64,000 nt of DNA, taken from an uncultured virus (IMG/VR IMGVR_UViG_3300012005_000005). Its lineage: Duplodnaviria > Heunggongvirae > Uroviricota > Caudoviricetes. The translations under genes and the position numbers were made by a program. The DNA lies in the IMG/VR virus record IMGVR_UViG_3300012005_000005, one strand, 5' to 3'. The stretch's first letter is position 1; each line of letters starts with the position of its first letter. Below the pieces are notes generated by a model. The model was not told where the DNA came from. It saw only the letters and a list, made by a program, of their open reading frames with translations, and did not search any database. Below, in pieces: positions 10,122 through 55,636 of the stretch.

Positions 10122-10124
10122 TTT

Positions 10125-10343
10125 TTAAAATTTAAAATTTAGATGAAACTCTTTTATAACTTCTATCAAGTCATCAAAATATTTACTGTTATACATCCCC
10201 CATATAGTCTCTTTTTTAGAATTACATATTCTAAATAAAGTAGTTTTACTTGGTATAGTAGAGGGTTCTGATTCTATAATTGGAAGTTCTTCTCCAAATT
10301 CTTTAATAAAATCTTTTCTAAGTATGTCTTTATTACTCATCAT
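10125..10343 (-). CDS. Hypothetical protein
   Basis: 72 aa ORF immediately after a promoter-like element. Confidence 0.6.
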   Translation of the reverse strand: MMSNKDILRKDFIKEFGEELPIIESEPSTIPSKTTLFRICNSKKETIWGMYNSKYFDDLIEVIKEFHLNFKF

Positions 10344-10344
10344 G

Positions 10345-10407
10345 TAAAATTAATGAATTTTAATGAATATTCCAAACTTTTGTCTTCTAATAATGACTTT
10401 GGATTAT
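10345..10407 (-). promoter_or_regulatory. Bacteroidota-type promoter (TTTG-N20-TAATTTTA) plus upstream TAAT-N8-ATTA box
   Basis: -7-like element 10345-10352 (one mismatch), -33 TTTG 10373-10376, box 10388-10407. Confidence 0.55.
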
Positions 10408-10419
10408 TTCAGTGATTTT

Positions 10420-13488: not shown

Positions 13489-13490
13489 AA

Positions 13491-14585
13491 TTATTTTATT
13501 TTTAACTCATACACCTTTCCTTTTAAGCGGGTAGTGTCTTTGTTACCTTTTAATATTTTTTTATTCCCATAACTATCTTTAACCATGACTGGCTGCCCAC
13601 TGTCTAATCCTCTAATAGTATTATAAGTGTTAGGAAGATTTAATGTCATAGAATCATATGGACTATTATTCAATCCATTATATAATTCTTCAGGAGTATT
13701 AGCAATTGCTCCTCCTGTTTGTTTTATTGCATTCGTTGCATATTGTCCTGCTGTTAACTTGTTTCCTGCTTCAGGATGAGGTACTTGATTGTCAGGATAA
13801 TTTGGATTACCTGTATACCATCCTTTAGCTATCATGTATTCTCTTTGTTTTCCTGTTATATTAGCAGGAATATTTTTGTCTAAGTCTTCTCTATAAGCAT
13901 TATTTACCATAGATTCAAAATTAGGGTCTGTCCTAAATTTTTGCTCTGCTGCTGTAGTATCTGTAATTCCTAATTTCGTATACATTAACATTCTTGTTCC
14001 TTTTACCATTTGTCCCCTCCCAAGTGCGGAAGATGTTTTTGATTGTTGTCCTGTTGCAGCTCCTTCATTTTTATAAATACCTGAAAATCCATGAGGAATA
14101 TCAGTGTTATAATTAAAAGTTTGAGGAACACCACTTCCATCTGTAGATGGCATATCTCCAAATACTATAGGATCATTATTATCATCTTGTGAAAATAATA
14201 AATTTAGCATATCATCATTTTTATAGGACTCATCTACCATTGGATCATAATTTCCTCTTGATTGATTTCCTATTAAAGATCTTAGGTCTTCAATTTGTGA
14301 ACTTAAATCATCAAAACTACTACTGTAGTCCTTCTGAGGCGTAACATCAGTTTGAACAGGTTGTGTCTGCTGCTGATCTTCTTGCTCTTTTTGAGCTGCT
14401 GCTTGGTATAGAGTACTAAAAAAATTGTTATCATCCTGAGCAGATTGCTCATCATTTCCACCAAATTGATACTTTCTTACTTTCTTAGGCAAAGATTTCT
14501 GATCCGTCATCGCTGCCCATTTTTTTGCAAATTTTTGATGTGTGGAAAATGCCCAACGTTCTTGCTGTTTACTTTTAAAAGGCAA
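13491..14585 (-). CDS. Virion protein with putative lysozyme/transglycosylase-like domain
   Basis: NEG...SSALGRGQMV resembles the SLT-like E...SSAxGxxQ motif; TTG start. Confidence 0.5.
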   Translation of the reverse strand: MPFKSKQQERWAFSTHQKFAKKWAAMTDQKSLPKKVRKYQFGGNDEQSAQDDNNFFSTLYQAAAQKEQEDQQQTQPVQTDVTPQKDYSSSFDDLSSQIEDLRSLIGNQSRGNYDPMVDESYKNDDMLNLLFSQDDNNDPIVFGDMPSTDGSGVPQTFNYNTDIPHGFSGIYKNEGAATGQQSKTSSALGRGQMVKGTRMLMYTKLGITDTTAAEQKFRTDPNFESMVNNAYREDLDKNIPANITGKQREYMIAKGWYTGNPNYPDNQVPHPEAGNKLTAGQYATNAIKQTGGAIANTPEELYNGLNNSPYDSMTLNLPNTYNTIRGLDSGQPVMVKDSYGNKKILKGNKDTTRLKGKVYELKIK

Positions 14586-14723
14586 TTTGTTCTTTTTTAA
14601 TTTGTTGTTTAATAGCTCTTCTTCTGTTCCTTGCTCCTAATTTTTTACCAAATGATCTTGCATGTTGCACACACAGGCCATTATAAAATGAATTTTCTTT
14701 CTTATTTAAAACTCTTCTACTCA

Positions 14724-17700
14724 TTATCTTATACTTTGACTTTGATTATTTTTACCCTCTTTAAATATAAATTTAAATCTACTTTCTGCATCCTGAATGT
14801 ACCTAACAGCAACATATTGTCCTCTTATTTCTGCATTCATTTGCTCTCCTTTATAGAAATTGAAAGCTTTTGGATTTAGAGTTTGAGTGACATTAGCACA
14901 ATCTAATAACCAAATAGGTACATTCCTTGTCTGACTATCAACATTATCCCAAAATTGATTCAAATTCCAAACATTGTTAGAATTTGTCACCTCTACTTTC
15001 ATTGATTTATCTGTAGCAAGAGGATATACTCCTGTACTACTTAAATCCTCTTCATTCTTCACTACTAACTCAAGAAGTCCTGAACACTGTCTTTGATTAA
15101 ATACAATAGCTTTATTAAATGTAATGTCTCTTTTAAATGACCAATCATATTGGTTATGGTATCTTAAAACATCCACATCAAAAGTTATAAATGTAGAGAA
15201 GTTTTGTTGAGAAGCTTTCTCATTAGTCATATAACCAAGTCTGGGTCTTTCAGAAATAGTTTCTACTATAAATGGATATAGTTTTCCAAAATAAACTTGG
15301 TATGATTTATTAGTTACTCCTTGACTCCATACAGAAGATTGTGTTTTTCCGTTTATACCAGCTTGAAAATAGTCTATATGTTGTACATAATAATTAGGAA
15401 TAAAAGAGTGAAATGATTTCCATTCTTTTGTCATAAAATTATAACTTCTTGTCCAAGACTTATCACAAAAATATTTAGGGTCATCTAAAAATACTTCTGT
15501 TCTTAAAGGTGTAGTAGTGGGTGCTTTTGTTAATGTTATTATACAATCATAACTTCCGTCTAATTGCTGTTCAGGAGCTTGACAATCAGGACAAATATAA
15601 TTAAAATTAGAAATAGAATCTCCTACTAAAGAAGAAGAACTAAATATAACATTTAAATCTGCTAAAGAAGATGCTGCAAGTAGCTCTGCCCTTGTATTAT
15701 CATAAATTTCTGCTGCAAATACAGCAATTGAGTCTATATTAAGTCCATACAACTCTACATAATTCTTACCTGCTGTTAAAGTTACTGGGTAAACATGAAA
15801 GAATTTAAAAGTAACTTGAGTATCTGTACTATGATTTAATGCCATCGCATCAGGATCAAAGTCTACTATTAAATTACATCCTATTTTAATTCTTGCTTTA
15901 TTATCTCCTGCAACTCCTACATAATAGGTTTTTGTTGTAGGAACATCTATTTCTTTTGTTACTCCCACCCACTCATTTAGAGGATCATTTCCTAATGAAT
16001 TCCATATACCTAATCTATTAACTGGGCCAAGTAATCCTGTATAAGGAGCAGGGTTAGTCCACAATGTATTAGTTGAAGTTGGATCAAGTAAAGTGAATGT
16101 TCCAGTACCATTAACATTATAACCAGCATCATAAATAACACTTCCAAATTGTCCATACACTTCAGAAGTTCTTGATACTGGAATAAAATCAGGAAGATTG
16201 TTTATTTTTTCTGCTGCAACTTTTGTAGTGAGAACACACATATCTCCTACTAAAGTATATCCAGGATCACATGAAAAAGTGTTTCCACTTGCGTTTATAT
16301 AAAAATGACCACCATCTTCTATTATACTATTATATTTCTTCTTATAGTCTTTTTTAGTTAAAAATATTCTACTATATCTTTTATCAAAAGCCATAGTGAG
16401 ACCTATTCCTCTAAAGGTATTGTCTAAATATTTATCTTCTAATGTAGGAAATTGCTTTAACAAAGTGAAAGGCAAATTTTCTTTAAACCAATTTCTTACA
16501 TTCTCTTCACATAAATCCTGAACTCCCTTTGCATTAGGAGCTAAATTAAATACTTGTCCTCTTCTTGCATCAGGAAATATATGTCCAAATTCTGTATGTA
16601 AAATAGTTTTGTGCTGACTTCCCGCATATCCTAATGTAGTAGTAGCAAAATCTTGTGGTCTTGTTGCAAAAACTCCCCCCGAACCTATCTGAACATCAGC
16701 TCCTCCTGATTGTGTTTTAATAACATCATAAGCATTAAATATTTGCAAACCATTCTCAAATCTTACAAGTACTTTTTCATTCTCTATACCGTCTACAGAA
16801 ATTAGTTTTCCTAAAGATAGTGGAAAATCATAATAATTATTTGCTTTTGATATAATCCAGTTGTCACCAAATTTATTTGCACTCACTTCATCGTAATAGA
16901 TTACTCTGTTAGGATGGGTTATTTTACATTGTCTATTATCAAATGTAGCTTGATTTATACAAATTATGCTTTCATGGTTTTGCTTTGAATAAGTCTTATT
17001 ATAATCATAAAAATTATCATAAGTGATAGGAACATTATTCTCTTGTAACCAAAAATCTAAATTAGATTGATGTGGATAAAAATCATGTTCTTTGTTATTA
17101 GTACCATATCTCAGATCTACATTTATATCACTTTCTACTAAGAAATATGGAATTCCATAATTATATACATGTATGTATCCCTTCTGATAAAATCTTAATG
17201 CAAACTTAGTATCTCTTGCATCTAATCTTGATTTAGGAGCACCTACTAAAGCAGATAATTGCAATATAGTTCCAATTCCCCCATCTTCTATTTTTTCAAG
17301 AAGAGTTTCATTACTATTAAAATAATAATTGGGGTATCCTATATTACCAAGATCGCTGTAATTAACAGAACCTTCATCTTGTGTTTTAAATCTTGTTTGT
17401 AAATAAAAAGGCACTTTAATTTTTAATGCAAATCTATTTATAAATACATCTCCTCCAAAAACATGACTACAATTATCATAAGTATTAGATAAGTTAAATA
17501 CACAACTATTTGTCTCTAAATAATCTATTTTAAAAATATCACCATATTGATTTGGTACGAAATTTTTTAATGCTGCATAATAGGAAGATATATTTCTATA
17601 CACTCTATTGCCTAACTCATCATAACCTACACCAAAATCATTCATAGTACCTCTACTGTTATCTATAACAGATGGGTTATCTAATGGTATGGAATTATCT

Positions 17701-45102: not shown

Positions 45103-45515
45103 TATATTCCTAATAGTTTCATTATTTGTCTAAATTCATTTATAGAAGGGCAGTATCCTCTAAAATATTGATTAGGTAATAAAGGTCTTGTACCTTTATC
45201 TATAGATAAAACATTCCCACCTGATGTATACCAACAATGCCAGTACTTATCTTTGGTAAATGATAATATTTCAGGATTGCTGCACTTTGCTTGTTTCCAC
45301 CCTTCTTCTTCTATTTGTTCTTTTGTTAGGTATTGAGTTCTGATTTCAGCATCATTATCCTTTTTATTATATTTACAGAAGTTTTCTAAATCATATAAAT
45401 TTTCTATTATTTCTTTATCCCAAATACCTCTTACAGGATCATTTTCTATTTCATATTCATACCCTACTCTTATGTCTTCTATTTCGGGGGTGAAGTATTT
45501 TTTATCTTTTTCCAT
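45102..45515 (-). CDS. Hypothetical phage protein
   Basis: YFTPEIEDIRVGYEYE...LTKEQIEEEGW; start moved to MEKD, downstream of the promoter. Confidence 0.7.
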   Translation of the reverse strand: MEKDKKYFTPEIEDIRVGYEYEIENDPVRGIWDKEIIENLYDLENFCKYNKKDNDAEIRTQYLTKEQIEEEGWKQAKCSNPEILSFTKDKYWHCWYTSGGNVLSIDKGTRPLLPNQYFRGYCPSINEFRQIMKLLGI

Positions 45516-45536
45516 AACTATTTGGTTTATAAAGAG

Positions 45537-45568
45537 CAAATATAATCAATTTTTATGACTTTACCAAA
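45537..45568 (-). promoter_or_regulatory. Bacteroidota sigma-A promoter
   Basis: TTTG-N20-TATATTTG. Confidence 0.75.
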
Positions 45569-45600
45569 TTTATTTTTAATCTTTGTTGATTATTTTAATT

Positions 45601-45651
45601 AAAAAAAGCCATCAGCCGATAGGGGATACCCCTGTCCTATGCTGACAGCTT
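45601..45651 (-). terminator. Long hairpin plus U run
   Basis: AGCTGTCAGC...GCTGATGGCT followed by a T run. Confidence 0.65.
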
Positions 45652-45656
45652 AAATT

Positions 45657-45687
45657 AAAAAGTCCCAAGATGGAAATCTTAGGACTT
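45657..45687 (-). terminator. Terminator of attenuator 3
   Basis: AAGTCCTAAGA-TTTCCA-TCTTGGGACTT then TTT. Confidence 0.75.
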
Positions 45688-45725
45688 ATATATTTTCAAT
45701 ACCAAGTTTATTTTTTATGAGTCTT

Positions 45726-45830
45726 TTAAGCCCAATCTGTATCTCTCGTATTAACATAACCCTTCTTGTCGTATGTAAAACACGGCTGTGTAGTTTGTTG
45801 ATGCCAAAATCGAGATACTAAATTTTTCAT
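45726..45830 (-). CDS. Leader peptide 3 (34 aa, MKNLVSRFWHQQTTQPCFTYDKKGYVNTRDTDWA)
   Basis: ATG 4 nt after TAGTTTTG; followed by a terminator; block of R(CGA)/F/W/H/Q/T/P/C codons. Confidence 0.7.
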   Translation of the reverse strand: MKNLVSRFWHQQTTQPCFTYDKKGYVNTRDTDWA

Positions 45831-45834
45831 AAAG

Positions 45835-45866
45835 CAAAACTAAGTAATTTTCTTGAAACTACCAAA
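45835..45866 (-). promoter_or_regulatory. Bacteroidota sigma-A promoter
   Basis: TTTG-N20-TAGTTTTG. Confidence 0.75.
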
Positions 45867-45883
45867 ACTATTTTAAAAAATAA

Positions 45884-46501
45884 CTAAAAATAATTAAAAA
45901 TCCAGGAATTTTCCTCTATTTCTACTAATTCAATACTTAAATCTTTAATTATTGTCTCTTTTTCACACTCATATACTTCTAAAGGGAGTTCTACTTTTTC
46001 TTTAAAAGGTTTTTCATATTTTTCATAAGAAAATATAAATCCCTTAGTAGTAAATTGCCTTTTAGCTACACAATTTATAATGCCAGTATATCTAATTTTT
46101 AATTCCTTAGAAGCTTCTTTAGCACTTATAAATTCTTTTATAAACTCTCCAAATAAATCATATTGATAAACTTTTTTGGGTTCTACAGGAACATAAGTTT
46201 TCCATTTTTTTCTTACTTCATCCCCTTTTAAAATATTTAAAAGTTGAAAACCCTTATCTAAATAAAGATTTATATAATATTTTTCTTTGCTTAGAAGAAT
46301 TTGTTTATTTAAAAATAGTAATTCTTCTAAAATTTCAAATTTATGATTTATTACACCATATTTTTTAAAAGAATTTAATAGTTTATGTTGTTGCTTACAG
46401 TTTAAAGTTTTATAATGTGACCATCTTCTTTCTATATTTAAAGATTCTCCTATGTAAATTTTATTAGTAGGAGAAGTTATTTTGTATATTCCTGATGTCA
46501 T
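45884..46501 (-). CDS. GIY-YIG homing endonuclease with NUMOD1
   Basis: SGIYKITSP..IYIGES and VYQYDLFGEFIKEF; start moved to MTSG. Confidence 0.85.
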   Translation of the reverse strand: MTSGIYKITSPTNKIYIGESLNIERRWSHYKTLNCKQQHKLLNSFKKYGVINHKFEILEELLFLNKQILLSKEKYYINLYLDKGFQLLNILKGDEVRKKWKTYVPVEPKKVYQYDLFGEFIKEFISAKEASKELKIRYTGIINCVAKRQFTTKGFIFSYEKYEKPFKEKVELPLEVYECEKETIIKDLSIELVEIEENSWIFNYF

Positions 46502-46507
46502 TGCATA

Positions 46508-46539
46508 CAAAATTATAAAAACTTTTTGATATTACCAAA
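46508..46539 (-). promoter_or_regulatory. Bacteroidota sigma-A promoter
   Basis: TTTG-N20-TAATTTTG. Confidence 0.7.
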
Positions 46540-46552
46540 TTTATTTTTAAAA

Positions 46553-46626
46553 GTGGGATAGAGGAGTCACCATCTCCATGCAGTTCCGTTTTACAGACGG
46601 TCTGACTTGCGCTGAGCATTATCCCA
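46553..46626 (-). tRNA. tRNA-Tyr(GTA), atypical/degenerate
   Basis: Acceptor TGGGATA/TATCCCA; anticodon arm CCGT-CTGTAAA-ACGG; non-canonical D and T loops. Confidence 0.55.
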
Positions 46627-46703
46627 ATATACATATCCAATCAGTATTAGTTCCATTAAACTCTACTAACCAAAGAATATTATTTAAGTTAATTATAAAC
46701 ATG

Positions 46704-46792
46704 CGGAAAACAGTGTACTCGAAACACATACCTCACAGGGTACATACGCCTTAGCAGGGCGTTGCTATTGTCCTAATATAGCTTTATTTTCC
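46704..46792 (-). tRNA. tRNA-Ser(GCT)
   Basis: ACGCC-CTGCTAA-GGCGT, long variable arm, TTCGA loop. Confidence 0.85.
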
Positions 46793-46797
46793 TTTTG

Positions 46798-46883
46798 CAG
46801 TAGGTGGAGGATTCCAACCCCCGTCGGTGTTACCCGCCTTCAGTTTTCAGGACTGCGCCATTAGCAAACTCTGGCAACCTACT
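46798..46883 (-). tRNA. tRNA-Ser(TGA)
   Basis: Acceptor AGTAGGT/ACCTACT; CAGT-CCTGAAA-ACTG; long variable arm. Confidence 0.75.
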
Positions 46884-46888
46884 ATTTG

Positions 46889-46962
46889 TACCGACAGTCC
46901 GATTTGAACGGACAAACTACACTTTCTAAGAATGTAAGGCGTACCAATTACCTCATGTCGGC
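46889..46962 (-). tRNA. tRNA-Leu(TAG)
   Basis: TACATT-CTTAGAA-AGTGTA; GTCCG-TTCAAAT-CGGAC. Confidence 0.85.
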
Positions 46963-46967
46963 GTTTG

Positions 46968-47042
46968 TGTTCCTACTGAGATTCGAACTCAGCCTTGTAA
47001 GATTTTTAAGACCTTTGCGTCCACCTACTGCGCCATAGGAAC
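46968..47042 (-). tRNA. tRNA-Leu(TAA)
   Basis: GTTCCTA/TAGGAAC; AAGGT-CTTAAAA-ATCTT; CTGAG-TTCGAAT-CTCAG. Confidence 0.88.
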
Positions 47043-47047
47043 GTTTG

Positions 47048-47119
47048 TACCCTTAGTAGGTCACGAGCCTACACTGATTACCTTTTGAGGGTAACGCCTC
47101 TGCATTGGGCTATAAGGGC
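47048..47119 (-). tRNA. tRNA-Leu(CAA)
   Basis: GCCCTTA/TAAGGGT; TTACC-CTCAAAA-GGTAA. Confidence 0.8.
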
Positions 47120-47121
47120 AT

Positions 47122-47152
47122 AAAAAAACCTTGTCTCAATTAAGCAACAAGG
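47122..47152 (-). terminator. Terminator of attenuator 1
   Basis: CCTTGT...ACAAGG plus T7, 2 nt upstream of tRNA-Leu(CAA). Confidence 0.8.
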
Positions 47153-47180
47153 TGTATATGTGTTTGAATGATTATAGGTA

Positions 47181-47264
47181 TTATCCTAATTCTATATCAT
47201 ACATTCCCCTGTCGCTATTTTGTAGCGATAAACTATAGAGACTATATGATGTAAATTGTTTCAT
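47181..47264 (-). CDS. Leader peptide 1 (27 aa, MKQFTSYSLYSLSLQNSDRGMYDIELG)
   Basis: Between promoter and terminator; 9 consecutive Ser/Tyr/Leu codons. Confidence 0.8.
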   Translation of the reverse strand: MKQFTSYSLYSLSLQNSDRGMYDIELG

Positions 47265-47279
47265 TATTTATTTAAAATG

Positions 47280-47311
47280 CAAATATACGTAAAATTTTTG
47301 ACATTGCCAAA
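47280..47311 (-). promoter_or_regulatory. Bacteroidota sigma-A promoter
   Basis: TTTG-N20-TATATTTG. Confidence 0.8.
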
Positions 47312-47319
47312 TATTTATT

Positions 47320-48333
47320 TTAACAAGTAGTTATAAAGTCTTCCCAAGCTTCTAAAGCTTCTTCATTATACCTTTTTAGAGATTTTTTTTCTTTTCTTAC
47401 TAAGGAGTTTCCATTTTTTAGAGCGTGTAACATTTTTTTTACTACTGCTTCTATGTTTGTAGTGGATGTTTTGCTTTCTTCTGGCAACCACTCTATTGTG
47501 TTTCCTACTATTATAGGAATTCCTTGTGATACAAAATCAGCGGCTACAATATTAAAAGATTCATTAAATGATAATTGCATTCCTAAATCCATATTTGAAA
47601 TAAGTCCTAAAAACTCCTCATGTGGAAGCCAAGAATGCTCAACTAACTCATGCTTAGTATTCTTAAACAAAGCTCTTAAATTCTTAACTACAGATTCTCC
47701 GCCTTGTTCTTGTCTTGTACTATTTACATGAAAGCGTATTAATTTATTTTGGTAATTGCCTAAACTTATAGAGGCAAAAGCTTGAAATAGTTGATTTTTC
47801 ATTGGTCTTAAGGCTCCAAAACAACCTATATCAATTACCTTTTTATTTTTAAACTCTCCCAAAAAATTTCTATCATCACAACCACTATAAATATTTGGAA
47901 GATATGGAAAATTTGTATAAAGTGTAGCCATAAAGGAAGTTTGAGCTTCTTTAGAATTAAAAGCTACTGATACATTAGAAATCTTTTTGTATTCTTTTAT
48001 CCAATCTATTGCTACACCCTCATTAGCTAAAAATGGAACTTCTGAGTGAATCCTTATTACAAATAACAAATCTTTATATAGTTTCTGTAATTCTTGTATT
48101 TTTTTGGGTGTAACCCAAATAGCTTCTATTATACATACATCCGGTCTATATTCATTAAGTTCTTTGTCTATGCTATTTCCATCTATACAGATTTTTAGAT
48201 CAGCTTCTATGTCTAAGTGTTCTTCTAAGCTCTCTTCGGTCATCTTTGCAGAATTAAATAATCCTGATGACAAGCCTTTGAAAGAATAGTTTCCGTAATT
48301 ATTTTGTTTTTTTAAAAGAAAAAGTATTTTCAT
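47320..48333 (-). CDS. Glycosyltransferase (GT-B fold-like)
   Basis: IGCFGALRPMKNQ...MDLGMQLSFNESFNIVAAD. Confidence 0.8.
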   Translation of the reverse strand: MKILFLLKKQNNYGNYSFKGLSSGLFNSAKMTEESLEEHLDIEADLKICIDGNSIDKELNEYRPDVCIIEAIWVTPKKIQELQKLYKDLLFVIRIHSEVPFLANEGVAIDWIKEYKKISNVSVAFNSKEAQTSFMATLYTNFPYLPNIYSGCDDRNFLGEFKNKKVIDIGCFGALRPMKNQLFQAFASISLGNYQNKLIRFHVNSTRQEQGGESVVKNLRALFKNTKHELVEHSWLPHEEFLGLISNMDLGMQLSFNESFNIVAADFVSQGIPIIVGNTIEWLPEESKTSTTNIEAVVKKMLHALKNGNSLVRKEKKSLKRYNEEALEAWEDFITTC

Positions 48334-48560
48334 TATACTGCTGGGGCTGGGTTTATTGTTACATCAATTCTATCTGAAGCATCTGTTAGTGTGCTATTTA
48401 GTGAAGCTATTGCTCCTGCGGTCATTGTATTTCCACTTGGAGTTATTGCTGATTCATTATCTAATATAGTACTTATTAACACTAACAAATTAGATAATTG
48501 CGCAATATCATTTTGTTGATCTACAGTGAATGCTACAGGAGGAATTACATTTATTGGCAT
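48333..48560 (-). CDS. Hypothetical protein
   Basis: 75 aa, stop overlaps the next start. Confidence 0.55.
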   Translation of the reverse strand: MPINVIPPVAFTVDQQNDIAQLSNLLVLISTILDNESAITPSGNTMTAGAIASLNSTLTDASDRIDVTINPAPAV

Positions 48561-48570
48561 TATTTACATT

Positions 48571-48732
48571 TTAAAAACGAAAATTGGTAAACTCTTTTAA
48601 TAACCATAAAAGACCTATAATTATTATTAGTGCTGAAAATAATTTTCTTTTTGGCTGGGTTAGTGTTATTAAATCAAGTAACAGAAAAGCTATTACATAA
48701 AATATTAAAACTAAGATTACTGCTGTTAACAT
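48571..48732 (-). CDS. Small two-TM membrane protein (53 aa, possible holin)
   Basis: MLTAVILVLIFYVIAFLLLDLITLTQPKRKLFSALIIIIGLLWLLKEFTNFRF; below the track length cutoff. Confidence 0.55.
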   Translation of the reverse strand: MLTAVILVLIFYVIAFLLLDLITLTQPKRKLFSALIIIIGLLWLLKEFTNFRF

Positions 48733-48763
48733 TGTTTATTATTTATTTATTTAAAAAGATTAA

Positions 48764-49228
48764 TTAATGAATAATTTTACCTACTAAAAACTCTATTACC
48801 CCTAATAAAATTAATAATCCTGTTCCATAGGTTGTTATTTGTGTAACCTTCTTCTCAATAAATCTGACTCTCATATCAATATCTTGCAAAGATGCTTCAA
48901 AATTAGCTTTATATAAGGCATCATAAGAATCTGAAACATTTAGTTTTTCCTTCTCTAAACTCTCAATTCTTCTTTCTGTTCCATTTGCAAGATTTTTAAT
49001 ATCTTCCCTTACACCTTCTATTCTTACTTTTAGTTCTACAAGTAGGTCATGGTCATTTCCATTGGTATTGACCAATACTCTACTTGCATCAATAGCGTTA
49101 CTGGCAACTAATTTACTTGCGGATTGTGCGGCATTAGCAATTACTGTTGCTGCCTGTTCTGCTGCCTTATTAATTAGTTTAACTGCATCGGCTGCATTTT
49201 TTATTGCTACTTCTTCATTATCATCCAT
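48764..49228 (-). CDS. Coiled-coil protein with C-terminal TM helix
   Basis: Ala-rich helix, DHDLLVEL motif, C-terminal hydrophobic segment. Confidence 0.65.
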   Translation of the reverse strand: MDDNEEVAIKNAADAVKLINKAAEQAATVIANAAQSASKLVASNAIDASRVLVNTNGNDHDLLVELKVRIEGVREDIKNLANGTERRIESLEKEKLNVSDSYDALYKANFEASLQDIDMRVRFIEKKVTQITTYGTGLLILLGVIEFLVGKIIH

Positions 49229-49236
49229 AAGTTATA

Positions 49237-49268
49237 CAAATATACGTAAAATAATTGGAATTACCAAA
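49237..49268 (-). promoter_or_regulatory. Bacteroidota sigma-A promoter
   Basis: TTTG-N20-TATATTTG. Confidence 0.75.
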
Positions 49269-49323
49269 TCCCATTATTCTTAGTCAGTCATAAATATAAA
49301 ATATGTAGTTTTAGTAGTATAAA

Positions 49324-49397
49324 TGGTGGACAGATGTGGGAGTCGAACCCAAACAATCTCCTTGCAAAGGAGTTGACCTGCCGTTGGCATCACGCCC
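49324..49397 (-). tRNA. tRNA-Ala(TGC)
   Basis: CTCC-TTTGCAA-GGAG, G3:U70 pair, encoded CCA; bulged acceptor stem. Confidence 0.75.
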
Positions 49398-49460
49398 ATA
49401 AAATTCCAAGCTCAATCCATCACGCAAGGATGTGCTTCTATACTGTTGGCTTGGACTTAG

Positions 49461-49534
49461 TTGTCGAAGTAGGATTTGAACCTACGGCCTCTTTCTTATC
49501 AGGAAATTGCGCTACCAAGCTGCGCCATTCGACA
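49461..49534 (-). tRNA. tRNA-Ile(GAT)
   Basis: TGTCGAA/TTCGACA; TTTC-CTGATAA-GAAA. Confidence 0.88.
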
Positions 49535-49539
49535 ATATG

Positions 49540-49611
49540 TTGATGCAGATGGAATCGAACCAACAATCACGGAGATATAAGCTCCGCACTCTACCATTGA
49601 ATTATGCATCA
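49540..49611 (-). tRNA. tRNA-Ile(TAT)
   Basis: TGATGCA/TGCATCA; CGGAG-CTTATAT-CTCCG. Confidence 0.85.
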
Positions 49612-49763
49612 ATATAATGGAAATTAGGAAACGTATTATTTTCTTTTTTATCCTTCGAGATGGGAAGCGCATTTCCACTAAGGTGCTATTTTGAAAGTTC
49701 AATCCTTAATAAGAACTTCCTTTTATCTAATAAGGCTTAAATATAGTGAAAAATAGCAAAACC

Positions 49764-49839
49764 TGGCAGAACACACGGGAGTTGAACCCGTTCCGTGCAC
49801 CTTGACAGGGTGACATCTTATCCGTTTGACCTGTGCTCT
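49764..49839 (-). tRNA. tRNA-Asp(GTC)
   Basis: AGAGCAC/GTGTTCT; CACC-CTGTCAA-GGTG; encoded CCA. Confidence 0.85.
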
Positions 49840-50861
49840 ATTAATTCTCTAAGTATTTCTACTCTTTGTTTATTTGTTTCTATTATATTATAATGTCTTT
49901 TTCCATATTCATAATTCATTTCTCCATAATCTTCTACTGCATTTGGGTTATTTATAAAAAATTTAAAAGCTTTATACCAATCCTGACCTTTGTCACAAAA
50001 AACTATACCTTTATGGTCTTTATCTGCTGTAAATGGTAAAACATTGCTGCAAATAAAGGGTTTTTTTGTAGAGGATGCCTCTAAAAACTTTAGATTTGAC
50101 TTACAACTGTTAAAAAAAGTGTCTTCTAATGGTGCAACTGTTATATCTCCATAATTATAATGCTCCATATACTTATCTAAAGTAAGAGTGTCTCTTCTAA
50201 TATATGAATTAGACTTTTTACATATAGATTCCATACTATACCAAGCATTTTGTTTACTATTTGTAGGGTTGTTATATCCACAAAGAGTAAAATTAGCCTT
50301 TTTTTTGAAGTCTGTATCTGTTCCAAGCCTTTGAAACAAACCACTAATGGATTTTAAGTCATTATAATGTGTACTTCCTGATACATATAAGAATCTTAAT
50401 TTATCTGAATCAGTTTTTCTATTCTCTACATCAAAGGAAAGTGCATTTGGTATAACAAAAATATTTTTATTATATACTTTATAAACATCCCTTAGTAACT
50501 CATTGGTTACAAATACTAAATCTGCCTGTTTGCATGCTTCTATTAAACGTTCTCCCAACTTTACCCTATTCCAATCTGTGTAGTATAAGTGATTATAAGG
50601 AAGTATATAGTAGTCATCTATATCTAAAACTATTTTAAAACCATATTTCTTCCTTAAAATGTTCATTACTTCCCACTCTTCAAACATCATACGTTTTAGA
50701 AAAACTATATCACAATCAAATATGGTCTCGTCCTTATAACAATCTTTGTGTCTTACAATTTTAATACTATCATTTTTTTCTAAATCAAAATAGTTGGTGG
50801 GTAAAAGAAGTCGGTGATAATCACATCCATCATTTTCGCTGTATAGGATAGTTATTCTCAT
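49818..50861 (-). CDS. Glycosyltransferase (GT-B, family 4-like)
   Basis: GCDYHRLLLP, LDIDD, VIPNA, APLEDTFFNSCKSNLKFLE. Confidence 0.85.
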   Translation of the reverse strand: MRITILYSENDGCDYHRLLLPTNYFDLEKNDSIKIVRHKDCYKDETIFDCDIVFLKRMMFEEWEVMNILRKKYGFKIVLDIDDYYILPYNHLYYTDWNRVKLGERLIEACKQADLVFVTNELLRDVYKVYNKNIFVIPNALSFDVENRKTDSDKLRFLYVSGSTHYNDLKSISGLFQRLGTDTDFKKKANFTLCGYNNPTNSKQNAWYSMESICKKSNSYIRRDTLTLDKYMEHYNYGDITVAPLEDTFFNSCKSNLKFLEASSTKKPFICSNVLPFTADKDHKGIVFCDKGQDWYKAFKFFINNPNAVEDYGEMNYEYGKRHYNIIETNKQRVEILRELIEHRSNG

Positions 50862-52078
50862 TCTACTACTTCAAAATTTGGTATTGGAATTACAAACTTT
50901 CCTTTATATCCAGCAGCTTTACATTTAGCAATTATTTCCTCTTTAAAATTCCACGATAGTATGACTAAATAATCAGGAGGATTTCTCATAAAATCATGAA
51001 TTGAAATAATTGGAATAAAAGTACCTGGTGAATATTTTCCTATTTTCTCAGGTGTTTCATCCACTATATATTTTATCCTTCCCACTGTAATGCCTGCACT
51101 GTTTAGTAGTGTATTTCCCTTTGCACTTGCTGCAAATGCTGCTACTGTTCCTCTCAAATTTAGGGCACTTATACCATCAGAAAATTCATTTATAGTTTGT
51201 TTCACTTCTTTGGCAAACTTTTTATAAGGTTCAATCCTATAGTAAGCCTCTTCTATCTTCAAAAAATCATAAACAGACTTATCAGGAAGTCCATTGCCAA
51301 TGGTTACTCTTACTGTTCCCCCATGAATATTTTGCTTTTCAACTTGTAGTATATTTAATCCAAATTTTGAACAAAGGATACCAATTGGATTTATAGAAAA
51401 ATAACTAAGATGTTCAAAATAGACAGTATCGAATTCTTTGTTTTCTATAAAATCAATTAGATATGGGAATTCAAGTATTAATTTACCTTCCGGTTTCAAC
51501 ATTATTTTTGCACCCTCTATAAAATCTTTCACATTGTCTACATGTGCGAATACATTAGTAGCAGTTATTAAATCTGCTTTACCATAACCGCTTCTTAATA
51601 AACGATTTGCAGTTTCTACACTCCAAAATTCAGTTAAAATAGGTACACCCACTGCTTCAGAAATTGCTGCTAAATTTTCTGCTGGGTCTATATTTAAAAC
51701 TTTTTCTCCTATAACTTTTTTAAACTGTTCAAGTAATGCTCCATCATTCCCTGCTATATCAATATGAAAAGAGTTTTCATTTAAACCCATTTTTTCTTTA
51801 AGATCAATAGCCATTTTCCTACAATGTTCAACATAAGTATTACTTATAGAAGAACGATAAACATAGTTTGAAAACAAAGTATGAGGATCTATTACAACAG
51901 ACAATTGACTCAGTCCGCAATCTGCACATAGTAAAACTTTTAATGGATAGGTTTCAGAATGAATGGGGTCTGATGTAGAGTTTGCTAAGTTATTACTTAA
52001 AGGCATATTACCTAAATCGAGGTAAGGTACTAACTTAGTACTGTTACATATTCTGCAATTTGTTTGATTTTTGTTCAT
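50858..52078 (-). CDS. SAM-dependent NDP-sugar C-methyltransferase-like protein
   Basis: CRIC...LGNMPLSN...CADCGLSQL, DIAGNDG, TNVFAHV, YFEHLSYF, AASAKGNTLL. Confidence 0.88.
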   Translation of the reverse strand: MNKNQTNCRICNSTKLVPYLDLGNMPLSNNLANSTSDPIHSETYPLKVLLCADCGLSQLSVVIDPHTLFSNYVYRSSISNTYVEHCRKMAIDLKEKMGLNENSFHIDIAGNDGALLEQFKKVIGEKVLNIDPAENLAAISEAVGVPILTEFWSVETANRLLRSGYGKADLITATNVFAHVDNVKDFIEGAKIMLKPEGKLILEFPYLIDFIENKEFDTVYFEHLSYFSINPIGILCSKFGLNILQVEKQNIHGGTVRVTIGNGLPDKSVYDFLKIEEAYYRIEPYKKFAKEVKQTINEFSDGISALNLRGTVAAFAASAKGNTLLNSAGITVGRIKYIVDETPEKIGKYSPGTFIPIISIHDFMRNPPDYLVILSWNFKEEIIAKCKAAGYKGKFVIPIPNFEVVE

Positions 52079-52095
52079 TTTTTATTTACTTTGTG

Positions 52096-53409
52096 TTAAT
52101 TATGTATTAATAAACATCCTGATACCTTTATCCACTTACTTGCTCCATATTTTTTAATAATATCATCAAAATAAGTCCAATCTGAGCTGTGACTTTTTAT
52201 ATCTCTCCATCCTACGCTGCATGCTGCACTCTTCTTTATCATTACTCCTGCACAATCTATATACCCTAACTGTAATTTACAATCTATTACTCCATATTTA
52301 TAATTATCCCACTTTAGATTGTCTGCACTTACTTGTCCATAGTTTAAAACAGTGGTTTGTTGAGGAGCTAAATAACTATGAACCATTTTAGAACAGTATG
52401 TAGCTACAGCATTTGGATTTTCTTTAAATCCAGTTAATAGGGTTTCTATATATGTTGGAACATGGTGATTATCTGCATTTGTAATTACTACATAGTCAGT
52501 ATTGGGTGATATTATATCCATATTTTTCAGTCCCCACTGTCTATAAAAATGTCCCCAATATCCTTTTCTTTCTGCAAATTCAATATAAGTTATTCTCTCA
52601 TCTCCTATTGTGGAAATAATTTTCTTCAGTCCTGTCTCATTTTTTCCATCATGAATTAGCAGCAACTTCCAATTTTTGTGAGTTTGATTTATTAAAGATG
52701 ATACTATTTCTGGATAAGTATTATAAACAGGACAAATAAAAGTAACTTTTTCTGAAAGATCTTTCTTAAAAACTGAATTAAATTCTTCTGTTCTACCTAA
52801 ATAACTTCTTATTTCTGTGTCCCATAAAGGACTGTTTGCTAATATAGGTTCTACTATTATTGCCTCCATTCCAAGTTTTTGAATCTGCAATAAGAAGTTA
52901 TTTTCTTCTCCGTGTTCAAACGAATAGCATTCTAATTTAGTATAAATTCTTTCCACAGGAAAAAAAAGCTTTTTTGAAGCACTTTTTGAAATAAGAAAAC
53001 CTGTTGTTCTTATATGTGGTCTAATTTGATTAGATATTTCTGTGCAAATTACTGCATTTTCATTTTCCTGAGACTTTTGAAGAAATGTTTTAAGAAAGTC
53101 TTTAGTCATAGGAATAACATCATCAGTTATCCACAGTAATTTATCCCAATTATTATCAAAACCTGAAAGTCTTTCTTTGCATACATCTTGAAAAACACCT
53201 ATATCATAACCAATATTTTCTCTTTGGATATATTTTATATTCTCTGCATCACACACATTTTTAAATTCCCTAACACTTACTTCTCTATCTATATTATGTA
53301 TAACAATTAGTTCTGCGCCTTCTTGATTACTTTGTTTCCAACAATCAATCCAACGTTTTAAATTATTTAATCTGTTGTAAATTATAATTACTACCTTGAT
53401 TTTTTGCAT
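52096..53409 (-). CDS. Two-domain glycosyltransferase (GT2-like)
   Basis: RENIGYDIG...PHIRTTGF N-domain; VTFICPVYN...QTHKNWKLLLIHDG...TNADN C-domain. Confidence 0.8.
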   Translation of the reverse strand: MQKIKVVIIIYNRLNNLKRWIDCWKQSNQEGAELIVIHNIDREVSVREFKNVCDAENIKYIQRENIGYDIGVFQDVCKERLSGFDNNWDKLLWITDDVIPMTKDFLKTFLQKSQENENAVICTEISNQIRPHIRTTGFLISKSASKKLFFPVERIYTKLECYSFEHGEENNFLLQIQKLGMEAIIVEPILANSPLWDTEIRSYLGRTEEFNSVFKKDLSEKVTFICPVYNTYPEIVSSLINQTHKNWKLLLIHDGKNETGLKKIISTIGDERITYIEFAERKGYWGHFYRQWGLKNMDIISPNTDYVVITNADNHHVPTYIETLLTGFKENPNAVATYCSKMVHSYLAPQQTTVLNYGQVSADNLKWDNYKYGVIDCKLQLGYIDCAGVMIKKSAACSVGWRDIKSHSSDWTYFDDIIKKYGASKWIKVSGCLLIHN

Positions 53410-53417
53410 ATATAGTG

Positions 53418-53449
53418 CAAAGATAATATAAAAAAATCAAATTGCCAAA
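53418..53449 (-). promoter_or_regulatory. Bacteroidota sigma-A promoter
   Basis: TTTG-N20-TATCTTTG. Confidence 0.75.
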
Positions 53450-53467
53450 TTTATTTTGTATTCATTG

Positions 53468-53538
53468 AGCGAATGGTGTGAATCGAACACACATCAAAAC
53501 TTTGGAAGAGTCTTGTTTTACCATTAAACTACACTCGC
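53468..53538 (-). tRNA. tRNA-Gly(TCC)
   Basis: GCGAGTG/CATTCGC; AGACT-CTTCCAA-AGTTT. Confidence 0.88.
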
Positions 53539-53541
53539 ATG

Positions 53542-53615
53542 TTTCGGGTGCAAGATTCGAACTTGCGGTATCCTACTTATGAGGAAGGTGAGATAGACCT
53601 CTTCTCTAACCCGAA
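53542..53615 (-). tRNA. tRNA-Met(CAT) (Ile2 not excluded)
   Basis: TTCGGGT/ACCCGAA; loop CTCATAA; GCAAG-TTCGAAT-CTTGC. Confidence 0.8.
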
Positions 53616-53764
53616 ATGTGGGACGTTGTTTTTTTATAGAACTTCGCCCAAAAACTATATGTTTTGACATTTTGCTGCGATTGATGCAATACGCTATTAT
53701 AATTCACGTACCCGTCTTCATTCAAACGTCTATGTGTCTGTCAACAACACATTACGTACAGTCG

Positions 53765-53917
53765 CTGTAGAAATAGGGATCGAACCTATAAGTGGAGATT
53801 AAAGTAAATACAAAATAAGATGTACATTTTACTGGTCAACCGATTATATCTACTCCGTTTCTTTTATCCACGCCACCGAGACAAGGTGGTGCGTCTGCCA
53901 AATTCCGCCACTCTACA
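53765..53917 (-). ncRNA. tRNA-like RNA (GTC loop) with 83-nt structured variable arm
   Basis: TGTAGAG/TTCTACA acceptor, Leu-like D arm, CCACC-TTGTCTC-GGTGG, ATAGG-TTCGATC-CCTAT. Confidence 0.7.
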
Positions 53918-53977
53918 ATTTATTATTTTCTACATTTTCCTACATTAAGGCNNNNNNNNNNGATGTTGTATAGTCCA

Positions 53978-54061
53978 TTAGTATCTTCTTAAAAGTGCTA
54001 AAATACAAAGAGCAATTCCACCTATTATTACTGAACCTATAGCTTCTAAAAATGTTTCCAT
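53978..54061 (-). CDS. Putative 27-aa membrane peptide (METFLEAIGSVIIGGIALCILALLRRY)
   Basis: ATG 4 nt after the TAACTTTG promoter element. Confidence 0.4.
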   Translation of the reverse strand: METFLEAIGSVIIGGIALCILALLRRY

Positions 54062-54065
54062 AATG

Positions 54066-54097
54066 CAAAGTTATATAATTATTTTGAACTTTCCAAA
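54066..54097 (-). promoter_or_regulatory. Bacteroidota sigma-A promoter
   Basis: TTTG-N20-TAACTTTG. Confidence 0.7.
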
Positions 54098-54107
54098 TTT
54101 ATTTTTG

Positions 54108-54184
54108 CGTTCAAGGAAGGATTCGAACCCGTCTGTCTTCGCTTTAAAAGAGCGTAGCTTATACCTGACTTAAGTTTCGAGGGT
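54108..54184 (-). pseudogene. Chimeric tRNA-Lys(TTT)
   Basis: CGCT-CTTTTAA-AGCG anticodon arm and GTTCGAATCC are present, but 5' ACCCTCG does not pair with 3' CTTGAAC. Confidence 0.6.
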
Positions 54185-54186
54185 AT

Positions 54187-54218
54187 AAAAAAACCCAAAA
54201 GTTTTTGTGCTCTTGGGT
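54187..54218 (-). terminator. Terminator of attenuator 2
   Basis: ACCCAAGA...TTTTGGGT plus T run, just upstream of the tRNA. Confidence 0.8.
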
Positions 54219-54246
54219 CTCATTATGAATCTATGTTAATTTCTTT

Positions 54247-54351
54247 TTATATTCCTGTTCCAACATAAGGATTCTGTTTACCCACAGAGCGAGATTTCTC
54301 TCCGCCATCGGCATTCATTCTATTATCCACTATGTTTACGTTTAAATACAT
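54247..54351 (-). CDS. Leader peptide 2 (34 aa, MYLNVNIVDNRMNADGGEKSRSVGKQNPYVGTGI)
   Basis: Between promoter and terminator; 16 consecutive purine-start codons. Confidence 0.75.
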   Translation of the reverse strand: MYLNVNIVDNRMNADGGEKSRSVGKQNPYVGTGI

Positions 54352-54375
54352 TGAAATTTTTATAAGTTTAAAGTG

Positions 54376-54406
54376 CAAATATAGGAAAACTTTTTTATAT
54401 TGCAAA
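54376..54406 (-). promoter_or_regulatory. Bacteroidota sigma-A promoter
   Basis: TTTG-N19-TATATTTG. Confidence 0.75.
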
Positions 54407-54449
54407 ATTTATTTTTAAAAATAATTGATTTTAATTATTATATACTTCT

Positions 54450-54713
54450 TTAATCATTTTGATGTGTATTTAATAATTTTTCAAAATCTTTTGGGGAAAG
54501 ATCAATCAAACATGTATCACCTGATTTAAGTTGTATCTGTGTTACATGTAAAACAGGGTCTCCATCAGCATCTCTGTGTGTTGGTCTATATGATTCTAAC
54601 TGAGAAGGTAAAAACTTAAACCAACTGTCTTCATATTCTTCTTTACCCATTACCTCTGCCCTACTTACACTATAAATTCTTATGTGTACTCTTATAAATC
54701 TTTCTGTAAACAT
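54450..54713 (-). CDS. Hypothetical protein
   Basis: Start moved to MFTERF, coupled by TAATG to the upstream gene. Confidence 0.6.
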   Translation of the reverse strand: MFTERFIRVHIRIYSVSRAEVMGKEEYEDSWFKFLPSQLESYRPTHRDADGDPVLHVTQIQLKSGDTCLIDLSPKDFEKLLNTHQND

Positions 54714-55120
54714 TATTTTATTTTTATTGATGTTGGTTTGTCTACTATAAATATAGCTTCTCCTGAATGTTTTTCCCACAGAGACAGCCAATCATTCCAT
54801 GCTATTTTTACAGGAAGTAGTCCACCATACTCTGCTACTAATATTGTATGTTCTTCATCTAATGGGTAGAAGTCATGTATTTCATTTGTATTTATTCCAT
54901 ATGGTTTATAATAGAATTCTAAATTCTTAGTGTTAAACATCTTCTCAAACCTATCATCCATGCCAAACTCTGAATCCTCATCATCCTCATCATTATCAAG
55001 GCCAAGTTTTCTTCTTGTTTTTCTATCTAAACCTCTTTCATCTTCTACATCGTCTCTATTTTCAGAGAGATAATCTTTTTTTGGTTTTGCATATTTAACT
55101 AATACTATTATTCTACTCAT
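54713..55120 (-). CDS. Hypothetical protein
   Basis: 135 aa with an acidic patch. Confidence 0.65.
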   Translation of the reverse strand: MSRIIVLVKYAKPKKDYLSENRDDVEDERGLDRKTRRKLGLDNDEDDEDSEFGMDDRFEKMFNTKNLEFYYKPYGINTNEIHDFYPLDEEHTILVAEYGGLLPVKIAWNDWLSLWEKHSGEAIFIVDKPTSIKIK

Positions 55121-55325
55121 TGTCTATTAATTGATTTGGCTGAAGGGGTGAAAGTAAAGTTTCATTTAGTGATCCACGAAAAGAATTATTAATTTTTTTG
55201 TAAAATTTAACTATACCAGTTTCATCTGTAAGAAAAATATAATGCTTTGGGCAAGATGAAGTTTTTTTAATATCTCCTTCTTCATTTATTGTTACCCACT
55301 TCTTCTTTAAAAAGAAATCTAACAT
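55113..55325 (-). CDS. Hypothetical protein
   Basis: 70 aa. Confidence 0.5.
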   Translation of the reverse strand: MLDFFLKKKWVTINEEGDIKKTSSCPKHYIFLTDETGIVKFYKKINNSFRGSLNETLLSPLQPNQLIDNE

Positions 55326-55636
55326 TATATTAATTCACTTAAGTGTTCAAAAATTTTTTCAATTCGTGAATTTTGTTTATTCACCTCATCAATCTCACTA
55401 TTAAACATTTGTAGAAAGTCTCGTTTAACATCAGGCTCTTCATTAGAAGATTTTATGTCTATTGGAACTCTCCTATTTAGGATACAGTTAAGTTTTTCTT
55501 CTATGCTATATAAATATTCTCTTTGTTGAGAATTATATTTAGACAACATATCTAAATTTAGCATTAATAAAGTATTGTTTTTTTCATCTTTTGTGTTTTT
55601 TACTTCTTTATTGTCTTGATATGCGTATGCTGACAT
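55325..55636 (-). CDS. Hypothetical coiled-coil protein
   Basis: 103 aa after a promoter. Confidence 0.6.
   Translation of the reverse strand: MSAYAYQDNKEVKNTKDEKNNTLLMLNLDMLSKYNSQQREYLYSIEEKLNCILNRRVPIDIKSSNEEPDVKRDFLQMFNSEIDEVNKQNSRIEKIFEHLSELI

Follow-up and report, generated by a model that had tools for sequence, protein, structure and literature searches.

Leader-peptide attenuators that sense several amino acids at once precede the enterobacterial thr, ilvGMEDA and ilvBN operons, and attenuators of this class also precede the trp, his, leu and pheA operons. Those described so far control genes of amino-acid biosynthesis or transport. In the 64,000-nt stretch of phage DNA analyzed here (the window), the minus-strand segment 54412-54186 resembles them in its short leader ORF, presumably translated, with a run of candidate regulatory codons; in an intrinsic terminator ahead of the genes to be regulated; in an upstream segment (region 2) able to pair with the 5' arm of that terminator; and in a single leader that would sense several amino acids. 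It differs from the enterobacterial attenuators in being phage-borne, in having tRNA genes rather than biosynthetic enzymes downstream, in sensors that spell up to 10-12 amino acids with essentially one codon per downstream tRNA, in the absence of a Shine-Dalgarno sequence upstream of the leader ATG, where there are A-rich bases only, and in an ORF that runs ~10 codons past region 2. Judged from its sequence, the unit would work like a leader-peptide attenuator and may represent a new variant in which tRNAs are the regulated genes. We consider it probable that it belongs to a family of ribosome-mediated (trp-type) attenuators positioned before tRNA blocks in this crAss-like lineage. T-box riboswitches likewise read tRNA status and choose between a terminator and an antiterminator, but they bind uncharged tRNA directly, need no translation, and control aminoacyl-tRNA synthetase and amino-acid genes. 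A T-box was rejected here: searching 45500-55500 against Rfam with cmscan (E up to 1) gave nine tRNA matches and two weak ones to Plastid-ycf2, 11 altogether, and none to a T-box or other leader family.

The unit is headed by a putative promoter (54374..54412, minus strand) consisting of an upstream AAAATAAATTTTGCAAT block and a TATATTTGCA (-7-type) box at 54383-54374. We take TTTG/TAnnTTTG to be the Bacteroidota promoter consensus, and further units, both in the window and in G004, G005 and G003, begin with this pair of elements. Behind the box, between the promoter and the tRNA genes, lies the leader ORF (MYLNVNIVDNRMNADGGEKSRSVGKQNPYVGTGI; 54247..54351, minus strand), with 34 codons and a stop (ATG at 54351, TAA at 54249-54247). 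Its candidate sensor codons 4-19 (54295..54342, minus strand) spell N V N I V D N R(AGA) M N A D G G E K, exactly as quoted in the first-pass annotation. Region 1 (54299..54313) supplies the 5' strand of a local hairpin by which, in the minimum-free-energy (MFE) fold, region 2 is sequestered; region 2, the predicted antiterminator strand GCTCTGTGGGT, spans codons 21-25 (54280..54290); region 3 (54209..54219) and region 4 (54186..54201), assigned from the fold, are the terminator 5' arm and the 3' arm with its T-run, all on the minus strand. Region 2 (54290-54280) is complementary to ACCCAAGAGC (54218-54209) over 5+5 bp with a single bulged G, which agrees with the 10-bp pairing GCTCT-G-TGGGT/terminator arm that had been claimed, and the proposed competitor, the hairpin GCGGAG...CTCTGT, is part of the leader MFE fold (188 nt, -44.3 kcal/mol; 1 of 200 shuffles equal). 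In nascent-RNA folds of the window unit and of the orthologous unit G005_A, region 2 is paired with region 3. The terminator hairpin (54219-54192, -12.2 kcal/mol) is followed by a T-run to 54186; it was not listed by a simple consensus terminator scan. The leader stop lies 27 nt before the terminator, and 11 nt with no promoter separate the terminator from a tRNA-Lys-like gene. A second frame (MPMAERNLALWVNRILMLEQEYKKKLT), which places three Lys codons just 5' of the terminator and the Lys-like gene, was rejected as the leader: it ends 11 nt short of the terminator, compared with 22-32 nt in the curated units, and the frame is absent from the orthologues.

This architecture recurs. In the eight other hand-curated units, the stop-to-terminator spacing is 27, 28, 28, 28, 22, 32, 28 and 27 nt. 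An automatic scan of all loci analyzed found a hairpin and T-run no more than 25 nt upstream of 19 of 157 tRNAs. Ahead of 18 of these 19 terminators, at a distance of 18-35 nt, stops an ORF of 15-60 codons that starts with ATG, a feature present in 12% of shuffled upstream DNA. Moreover, across the 19 units none of 10000 permutations of leaders and arms reached the observed mean complementarity, and the best duplex between a leader and its own arm starts at leader nt 46-62 in every unit. The own arm ranked first of 19 in nine units and fifth in the window unit, whose leader/arm duplex (-11.4 kcal/mol) was equalled by 20 of 500 and 11 of 300 shuffles. The tRNA blocks have no promoter between the terminator and the first tRNA (0-11 nt); the arrays therefore depend on read-through.

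The array behind the window leader is eroded. The position held by tRNA-Lys in relatives is occupied by a decayed tRNA-Lys(UUU)-like gene (54107..54175, minus strand), missed by default ARAGORN and by Rfam; it and the "Ala" gene (49399-49328) were detected with relaxed ARAGORN thresholds only, and both have poor acceptor and T stems. A candidate internal promoter box (TAACTTTGCA, 54064..54073, minus strand) with the motif TAnnTTTGCA starts 34 nt past the Lys-like gene. It is followed by a small hydrophobic ORF of 27 codons (53978..54061, minus strand) whose stop shares bases with the ATG of another short ORF entering the N run (10 N, 53952..53961); G003 and G004 contain the same overlapping pair. 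Beyond the gap come an odd 151-nt tRNA-like RNA (53766..53916, minus strand), labeled "Asp-like" in the first-pass annotation, with GUC in its anticodon loop and a variable arm of ~80 nt, which is conserved in G004; tRNA-Met(CAT) and tRNA-Gly(TCC) (53467..53615, minus strand); a second candidate promoter box (TATCTTTGCA, 53416..53425, minus strand) preceding a glycosyltransferase/methyltransferase cassette (53409-49818); and tRNA-Asp(GTC), tRNA-Ile(TAT), tRNA-Ile(GAT) and a weak Ala(TGC)-like gene (49328..49839, minus strand). Met, Gly and both Ile tRNAs were detected by both ARAGORN and Rfam, and tRNA-Asp (49839-49767) by Rfam only (45.1 bits). The Ala-like gene and a Tyr-like gene of this phage also appear decayed. 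The window contains 21 copies of TAnnTTTGCA where 6.8 are expected, and none of 100 shuffles reached 21. The caution that internal promoters might bypass the attenuator thus proved apt, with boxes at 54073-54064 and 53425-53416; since the later tRNAs have these promoters of their own, read-through would only add to the expression of the remaining genes.

No tRNA for Cys, Val, Arg(TCT), Asn or Glu was found in the stretch behind the window leader. The suggestion that the missing Asn, Val, Arg(TCT) and Glu genes lie in the N gap or in a chimeric junction failed: the N run (53961-53952) is bridged by two contigs, from the separate runs X1 and X2, with 25 extra letters, so that the real gap of ~35 nt hides no tRNA. 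The same contigs, which show no other differing letters and may be source data and hence not independent of the window, led us to reject a chimera or assembly error between 53.9 and 54.2 kb. The tRNAs predicted from the leader are absent from the gap and present in the arrays of relatives. Orthologues of the leader, in the same frame, occur in G004, G005, L111 and the cultured Leptolyngbya phage Lbo-JY46. The G004 array reads Lys, Lys, Cys, Val, Arg(TCT), Asn, Met, Gly, Glu, Asp, Ile, Ile, Ala, and that of G005 Lys, Cys, Val, Arg(TCT), Asn, Met, Gly, Glu, Asp, Ile, Ile, Ala; Lbo-JY46 (locus L096), in which all three unit types are present with leader terminators at ~2004, ~5520 and ~6247 of that locus, has the same set, with an ARAGORN "Cys aca" at the place of Val(tac) in G005 and a CAT tRNA at that of Ile(TAT). 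Every relative with the leader keeps the ORF, and none has unrelated tRNAs behind it. The closest relative is L098 (terminase 60%), and G001 and G002, which end at 50700 and 53540, are the same phage as the window. The AAA ATPase gene as an anchor gave no close relatives among viral or metagenome contigs, an exact leader 25-mer had no match in viral contigs, and blastn against GenBank phages returned a tRNA-Gly resemblance only. No leader/terminator unit was found with the tRNAs of G007 or in Bacteroides phage crAss001.

The window unit is thus partly orphaned: its first gene is a decayed tRNA-Lys, and nothing remains of the Cys/Val/Arg(TCT)/Asn block or of Glu. Because the missing tRNAs are absent and not hidden, and tRNA-Lys has decayed, the leader now lists tRNAs that the phage no longer carries there. 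The unit might be a relic, descended from a working attenuator and now an undecayed leftover before a dead tRNA-Lys with no useful regulation. The degenerate Lys gene, the five absent species, the new promoter 34 nt downstream and the decayed look of the Ala-like and Tyr-like genes all speak for such a history. However, no damage is seen in the ORF, the 27-nt spacing, the terminator or the complementarity; shuffled DNA retains an ORF of this kind in ~12% of cases, and read-through would still feed the odd tRNA-like RNA, Met and Gly. We regard loss of function as unlikely.

For this leader, the relation between codons and tRNAs is seen against the arrays of relatives and not against the tRNAs visible in the window. 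Against the tRNAs visible in the window, the longest cognate run of the leader is 4, a chance-level result equalled by 4425 of 15699 random stretches; against the A-type arrays of G004 and G005, all 16 of codons 4-19 are cognate, and a run of 16 was reached by 84 of 15699. For this unit, the claim that leader codons predict tRNAs is supported against the arrays of relatives, and the match to the phage's own visible set is not significant. G004_A and G005_A each have a run of 14 (36 of 5277 and 41 of 4259 random stretches, respectively). For WIN_B, G004_B, G004_C, G005_B, G005_C and G003_C, the observed run was reached by no random stretch (4174-15972 tried). Run tests have little power for A-type arrays because more than half of all codons can be read by such arrays. 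Count tests for these arrays gave 0.04-0.07, and although 9 of the 12 tRNA species in the G005 array are represented in the window leader, 8850 of 15660 random stretches reach the same coverage. The cognate fraction of A leaders is 0.75 against A arrays and 0-0.12 against B and C arrays, and the Arg codons match the Arg tRNA of the block: A leaders use AGA, with Arg-TCT in the array, whereas C leaders use CGT, with Arg-ACG. The match is sharper among the sister units, where Leu/Ser/Tyr leaders precede Leu/Ser/Tyr tRNAs, and a leader reading T-R-T-H-T-Q-Q-F-W-F-P-T precedes Pro/Thr/Phe/Gln/His/Arg/Trp tRNAs; leaders of the B, C and D types track their own arrays in content. In an uncurated pass over 18 units, six did not fall below 0.05 (L098 unit 0, L110, L111 unit 0, L144, L096 unit 1 and G004 unit 1), in part because ARAGORN missed tRNAs. 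A correspondence between Cys codons and tRNA-Cys fits four of five A-type units and is not claimed, as L111 has Cys codons and no detected Cys tRNA.

Small ORFs are frequent among phage tRNA genes, and the codon statistics of the window unit are themselves weak, so that the ORF could be read as a micro-protein gene of the usual kind that has a terminator of its own; on this view, terminators do no more than insulate tRNA blocks, and the codon resemblance is incidental. This reading is very improbable. It leaves the 0-11 nt between terminator and first tRNA without a promoter, where the arrays need read-through; it does not account for B-, C- and D-type leaders whose content follows their arrays, or for a complementarity between leaders and arms above that of 10000 of 10000 permutations; and the leader peptides show little conservation beyond codon classes. 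Reading frame and stop-to-terminator spacing are kept across diverged orthologues despite sequence drift, which, together with the confinement of the Rfam matches to tRNAs and the two weak Plastid-ycf2 hits, makes it barely credible that the element acts without translation, as a structured small RNA or leader (one that is processed or binds a protein, for instance) of which the ORF is a by-product, even though the 188-nt leader folds well (z = -4.0).

Apart from the gap, the first-pass reading of this leader as an attenuator is supported by the orthologues and the arrays of relatives, and the sister units give strong support to the device in general. Based on these data, we propose a plausible mechanism, in which we infer translation, termination and read-through of the window unit alike. 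When an aminoacyl-tRNA named by the leader is scarce, the ribosome would stall within codons 4-19, leaving region 2 free to pair with region 3 as the latter emerges. This pairing would block the terminator, and RNA polymerase would continue into the tRNA genes. When supply is adequate, the codons would be read quickly and the ribosome would pass over region 2 to the stop codon; the local terminator hairpin would form instead and transcription would stop at ~54186. The outcome would be negative feedback on tRNA supply. Equilibrium folds, including those with a masked ribosome footprint, always favor the terminator, and the switch would therefore have to be kinetic. Region 2 sits ~30 nt upstream of the leader stop, so that a ribosome waiting at the stop would no longer cover it; the geometry proposed here is therefore tentative.

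We further speculate, with confidence evenly divided, that each leader genuinely senses tRNA supply and serves as a "table of contents" for its block, which would be transcribed only upon stalling for that block's tRNAs. In such a shortage-triggered resupply circuit, stalling could stem from host anticodon nucleases or other tRNA-degrading defenses, and a sensor could outlive the genes it lists and may have been re-used as a general switch by which translation stress acts on the genes left downstream. Why phages carry tRNA genes, and how these are controlled, has been debated for decades. As far as the literature accessible to us extends, no paper on attenuators before tRNA genes, or on Lbo-JY46, was found. 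According to recent proposals, phage tRNAs stand in for host tRNAs cut by defense nucleases (PMC10264068, PMC12409363). The locus described here offers a natural "before and after", with an intact sensor and an eroded array set against the full set in relatives, and the availability of Lbo-JY46 in culture, with all three unit types in one genome, makes experiments feasible. If the proposal is true, it would provide a direct, testable link in which the phage measures the decoding of given codons and makes the matching tRNAs on demand, and classic attenuation, so far a response to the supply of amino acids, would be extended to that of tRNAs.

On the minus strand of the window, a −7 box, TATATTTGCA (54383-54374), precedes a 34-codon leader ORF (54351-54247), which is followed by a terminator hairpin (54219-54192, −12.2 kcal/mol) with a T-run to 54186. 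Codons 4-19, the sensor codons, are exactly as the first-pass annotation had given them, and the complementarity it had noted between GCTCTGTGGGT (54290-54280, region 2) and the terminator 5′ arm (54218-54209, region 3) is present. In the equilibrium fold, GCTCTGTGGGT (54290-54280) is paired with 54313-54299 in a local hairpin instead of with the terminator arm; folding of the entire leader gave z = −4.0. The hairpin at 54219-54192 was absent from the output of a consensus terminator scan.

Related contigs were gathered by terminase alignment, and included the cultured Leptolyngbya phage Lbo-JY46 (terminase identity 51%). The order leader, terminator, listed tRNAs recurs in four genomes (G004, G005, Lbo-JY46 and L111), with leaders that are orthologous and in the same frame. 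In G004, the leader MYLIVDNMICGNGRAKELAGAGIVLSSGDK precedes Lys, Lys, Cys, Val, Arg(TCT), Asn, Met, Gly, Glu, Asp, Ile, Ile, and Ala tRNAs; in G005, MNSRTVIDNIRNAEGCKKALVGNVCFYDGGCGCN precedes Lys, Cys, Val, Arg(TCT), Asn, Met, Gly, Glu, Asp, Ile, Ile, and Ala. The arrays of Lbo-JY46 and L111 are of the same kind. Asn, Val, Arg(TCT), and Glu tRNAs, as had been predicted from the window leader, exist in the arrays of these relatives.

The case for codon-matched leaders before tRNA arrays is made by sister units. The same genomes contain two further types, B and C, besides the one described so far (A). B leaders have many Leu, Ser, and Tyr codons and precede Leu, Ser, and Tyr tRNAs. The window unit at 47264-47128 (minus strand; ‘Attenuator 1’) is of this type, with leader MKQFTSYSLYSLSLQNSDRGMYDIELG, antiterminator, and terminator, and directly behind it lie Leu(CAA), Leu(TAA), Leu(TAG), Ser(TGA), Ser(GCT), and a Tyr-like gene. 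Its own-arm duplex measures −16.8 kcal/mol (1/500 shuffles), and none of 15972 random stretches had a cognate run this long. For the C type, codons 4-15 in G005 read T R(CGT) T H T Q Q F W F P T, ahead of Pro, Thr, Phe, Gln, His, Arg(ACG), and Trp tRNAs, while G003, with Pro, Gln, and His tRNAs only, has the leader ..HPQPQH... In L030, a more distant phage, a leader of different composition again mirrors its own array, as read by eye. The Pro...Trp block of relatives is missing from the window phage.

Across the six curated B and C units, the observed cognate run was reached by no random stretch (4174-15972 tried). For A units with curated arrays, it was reached by 36/5277 and 41/4259; count tests gave 0.04-0.07, and coverage tests 14/4247 for G005 and 122/5262 for G004. 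Against the A arrays of relatives, the window leader has a run of 16 (84/15699 random stretches); against the window’s own visible tRNAs the run is 4, matched by 4425/15699. It covers 9 of the 12 species of the G005 array, as do 8850/15660 random stretches. In an automatic pass, 12 of 18 units scored below 0.05 with their own arrays and six did not, and the own array gave the highest longest run in 12/14 units from genomes that have two or more.

The same pass placed a terminator ≤25 nt upstream of 19/157 tRNAs. A small ORF ends 18-35 nt before 18 of these 19 terminators (shuffles, 12%). In all 19 units, the part of the leader that complements the unit’s own terminator arm begins at leader nt 46-62, and this own-arm complementarity exceeded that of 10000/10000 permuted assignments.

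Default ARAGORN and Rfam both detected the Met, Gly, Ile(TAT), and Ile(GAT) tRNAs of the window, and Rfam only detected Asp; Lys and Ala appeared at relaxed thresholds only. The Ala-like gene (49399-49328) has a wobble-rich acceptor. The Lys-like gene (54175-54107) occupies the position of tRNA-Lys(TTT) in relatives, but its acceptor stem is unpaired and 3 pairs form in the T stem: the Lys gene is decayed in the window phage. The Tyr-like gene (46626-46553) is degenerate, with a non-canonical T loop. Given these three degenerate genes, the phage seems to be losing tRNAs. Behind the window leader, Cys, Val, Arg(TCT), Asn, and Glu tRNAs are missing, and their site is occupied by a promoter and two short ORFs, the first of them hydrophobic. 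The first-pass annotation had suggested that the Asn, Val, Arg(TCT), and Glu tRNAs might lie in a chimeric junction or in the N gap. In one study, contigs of two runs, possibly the source of this DNA, span 53400-54450 with no other letter differing; because these bridging contigs add only 25 letters at the N run, the gap is ~35 nt and holds no tRNA.

The stop of the small hydrophobic ORF (54061-53978, minus strand) overlaps the ATG of the short ORF after it (53978 onward), which the N run interrupts. Units in G003 and G004 are likewise headed by a small membrane-like ORF with an overlapping leader; through translational coupling, this pairing may load ribosomes onto the leader. The ‘Asp-like’ gene (53916-53766, minus strand) is an odd tRNA-like RNA of 151 nt, with a Leu-like D arm, a variable arm of ~80 nt, and TTGTCTC (GUC) as its anticodon loop. 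In G004 a full-length homologue (75.5% over 139 nt) is present, and two stems show apparent compensatory changes, judged by eye; the 5′ part also matches L111 and L110. Bacterial tRNA-Leu usually has a long variable arm. The three Leu tRNAs of the window (46888-47119) are 73-76 nt and therefore have none; short Leu tRNAs are shared by G004, G005, and Lbo-JY46, and those of L098 are 85-87 nt. A glycosyltransferase/C-methyltransferase/glycosyltransferase cassette with its own promoter divides the tRNA region (53409-49818; also L011, ~100-2850), and G004 has another sugar-modifying cassette in the same place. Homing-endonuclease genes with their own promoters lie in or beside tRNA blocks in the window (46510-45884), L090, L098, and Lbo-JY46; they are GIY-YIG in the window and HNH-like in relatives.

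The window comes from a crAss-like phage and encodes a Crassvirus major capsid domain, a portal, a large terminase, and giant virion proteins; its GC content is ~30%, and almost all of its genes are on the minus strand. The same phage occurs in two IMG/VR records, with ends at 50700 and 53540. A two-part promoter motif ending in TAnnTTTGCA, which we take to be the Bacteroidota consensus, occurs 21 times (6.8 expected; 0/100 shuffles reach 21). The internal promoters proposed as a bypass of the attenuator do have boxes, at 54073-54064 and 53425-53416. The recorded host of the nearest cultured relative, Lbo-JY46 (PP438436.1), is the cyanobacterium Leptolyngbya boryana; despite this, it too carries a TTTGG...TAnnTTTG motif, presumably of Bacteroidota type.

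The whole switch is our inference, modelled on trp-type attenuation. Slow translation of codons 4-19 would keep region 2 available for pairing with region 3, allowing polymerase read-through, and a ribosome running on would let the terminator form. In nascent-RNA folds, regions 2 and 3 are paired; in full-length folds, the terminator is preferred. Literature searches found no description of attenuators ahead of tRNA genes. crAss001 has no such leader/terminator unit, and the device is therefore confined to particular lineages. We regard the window unit as a probable variant of leader-peptide attenuation.
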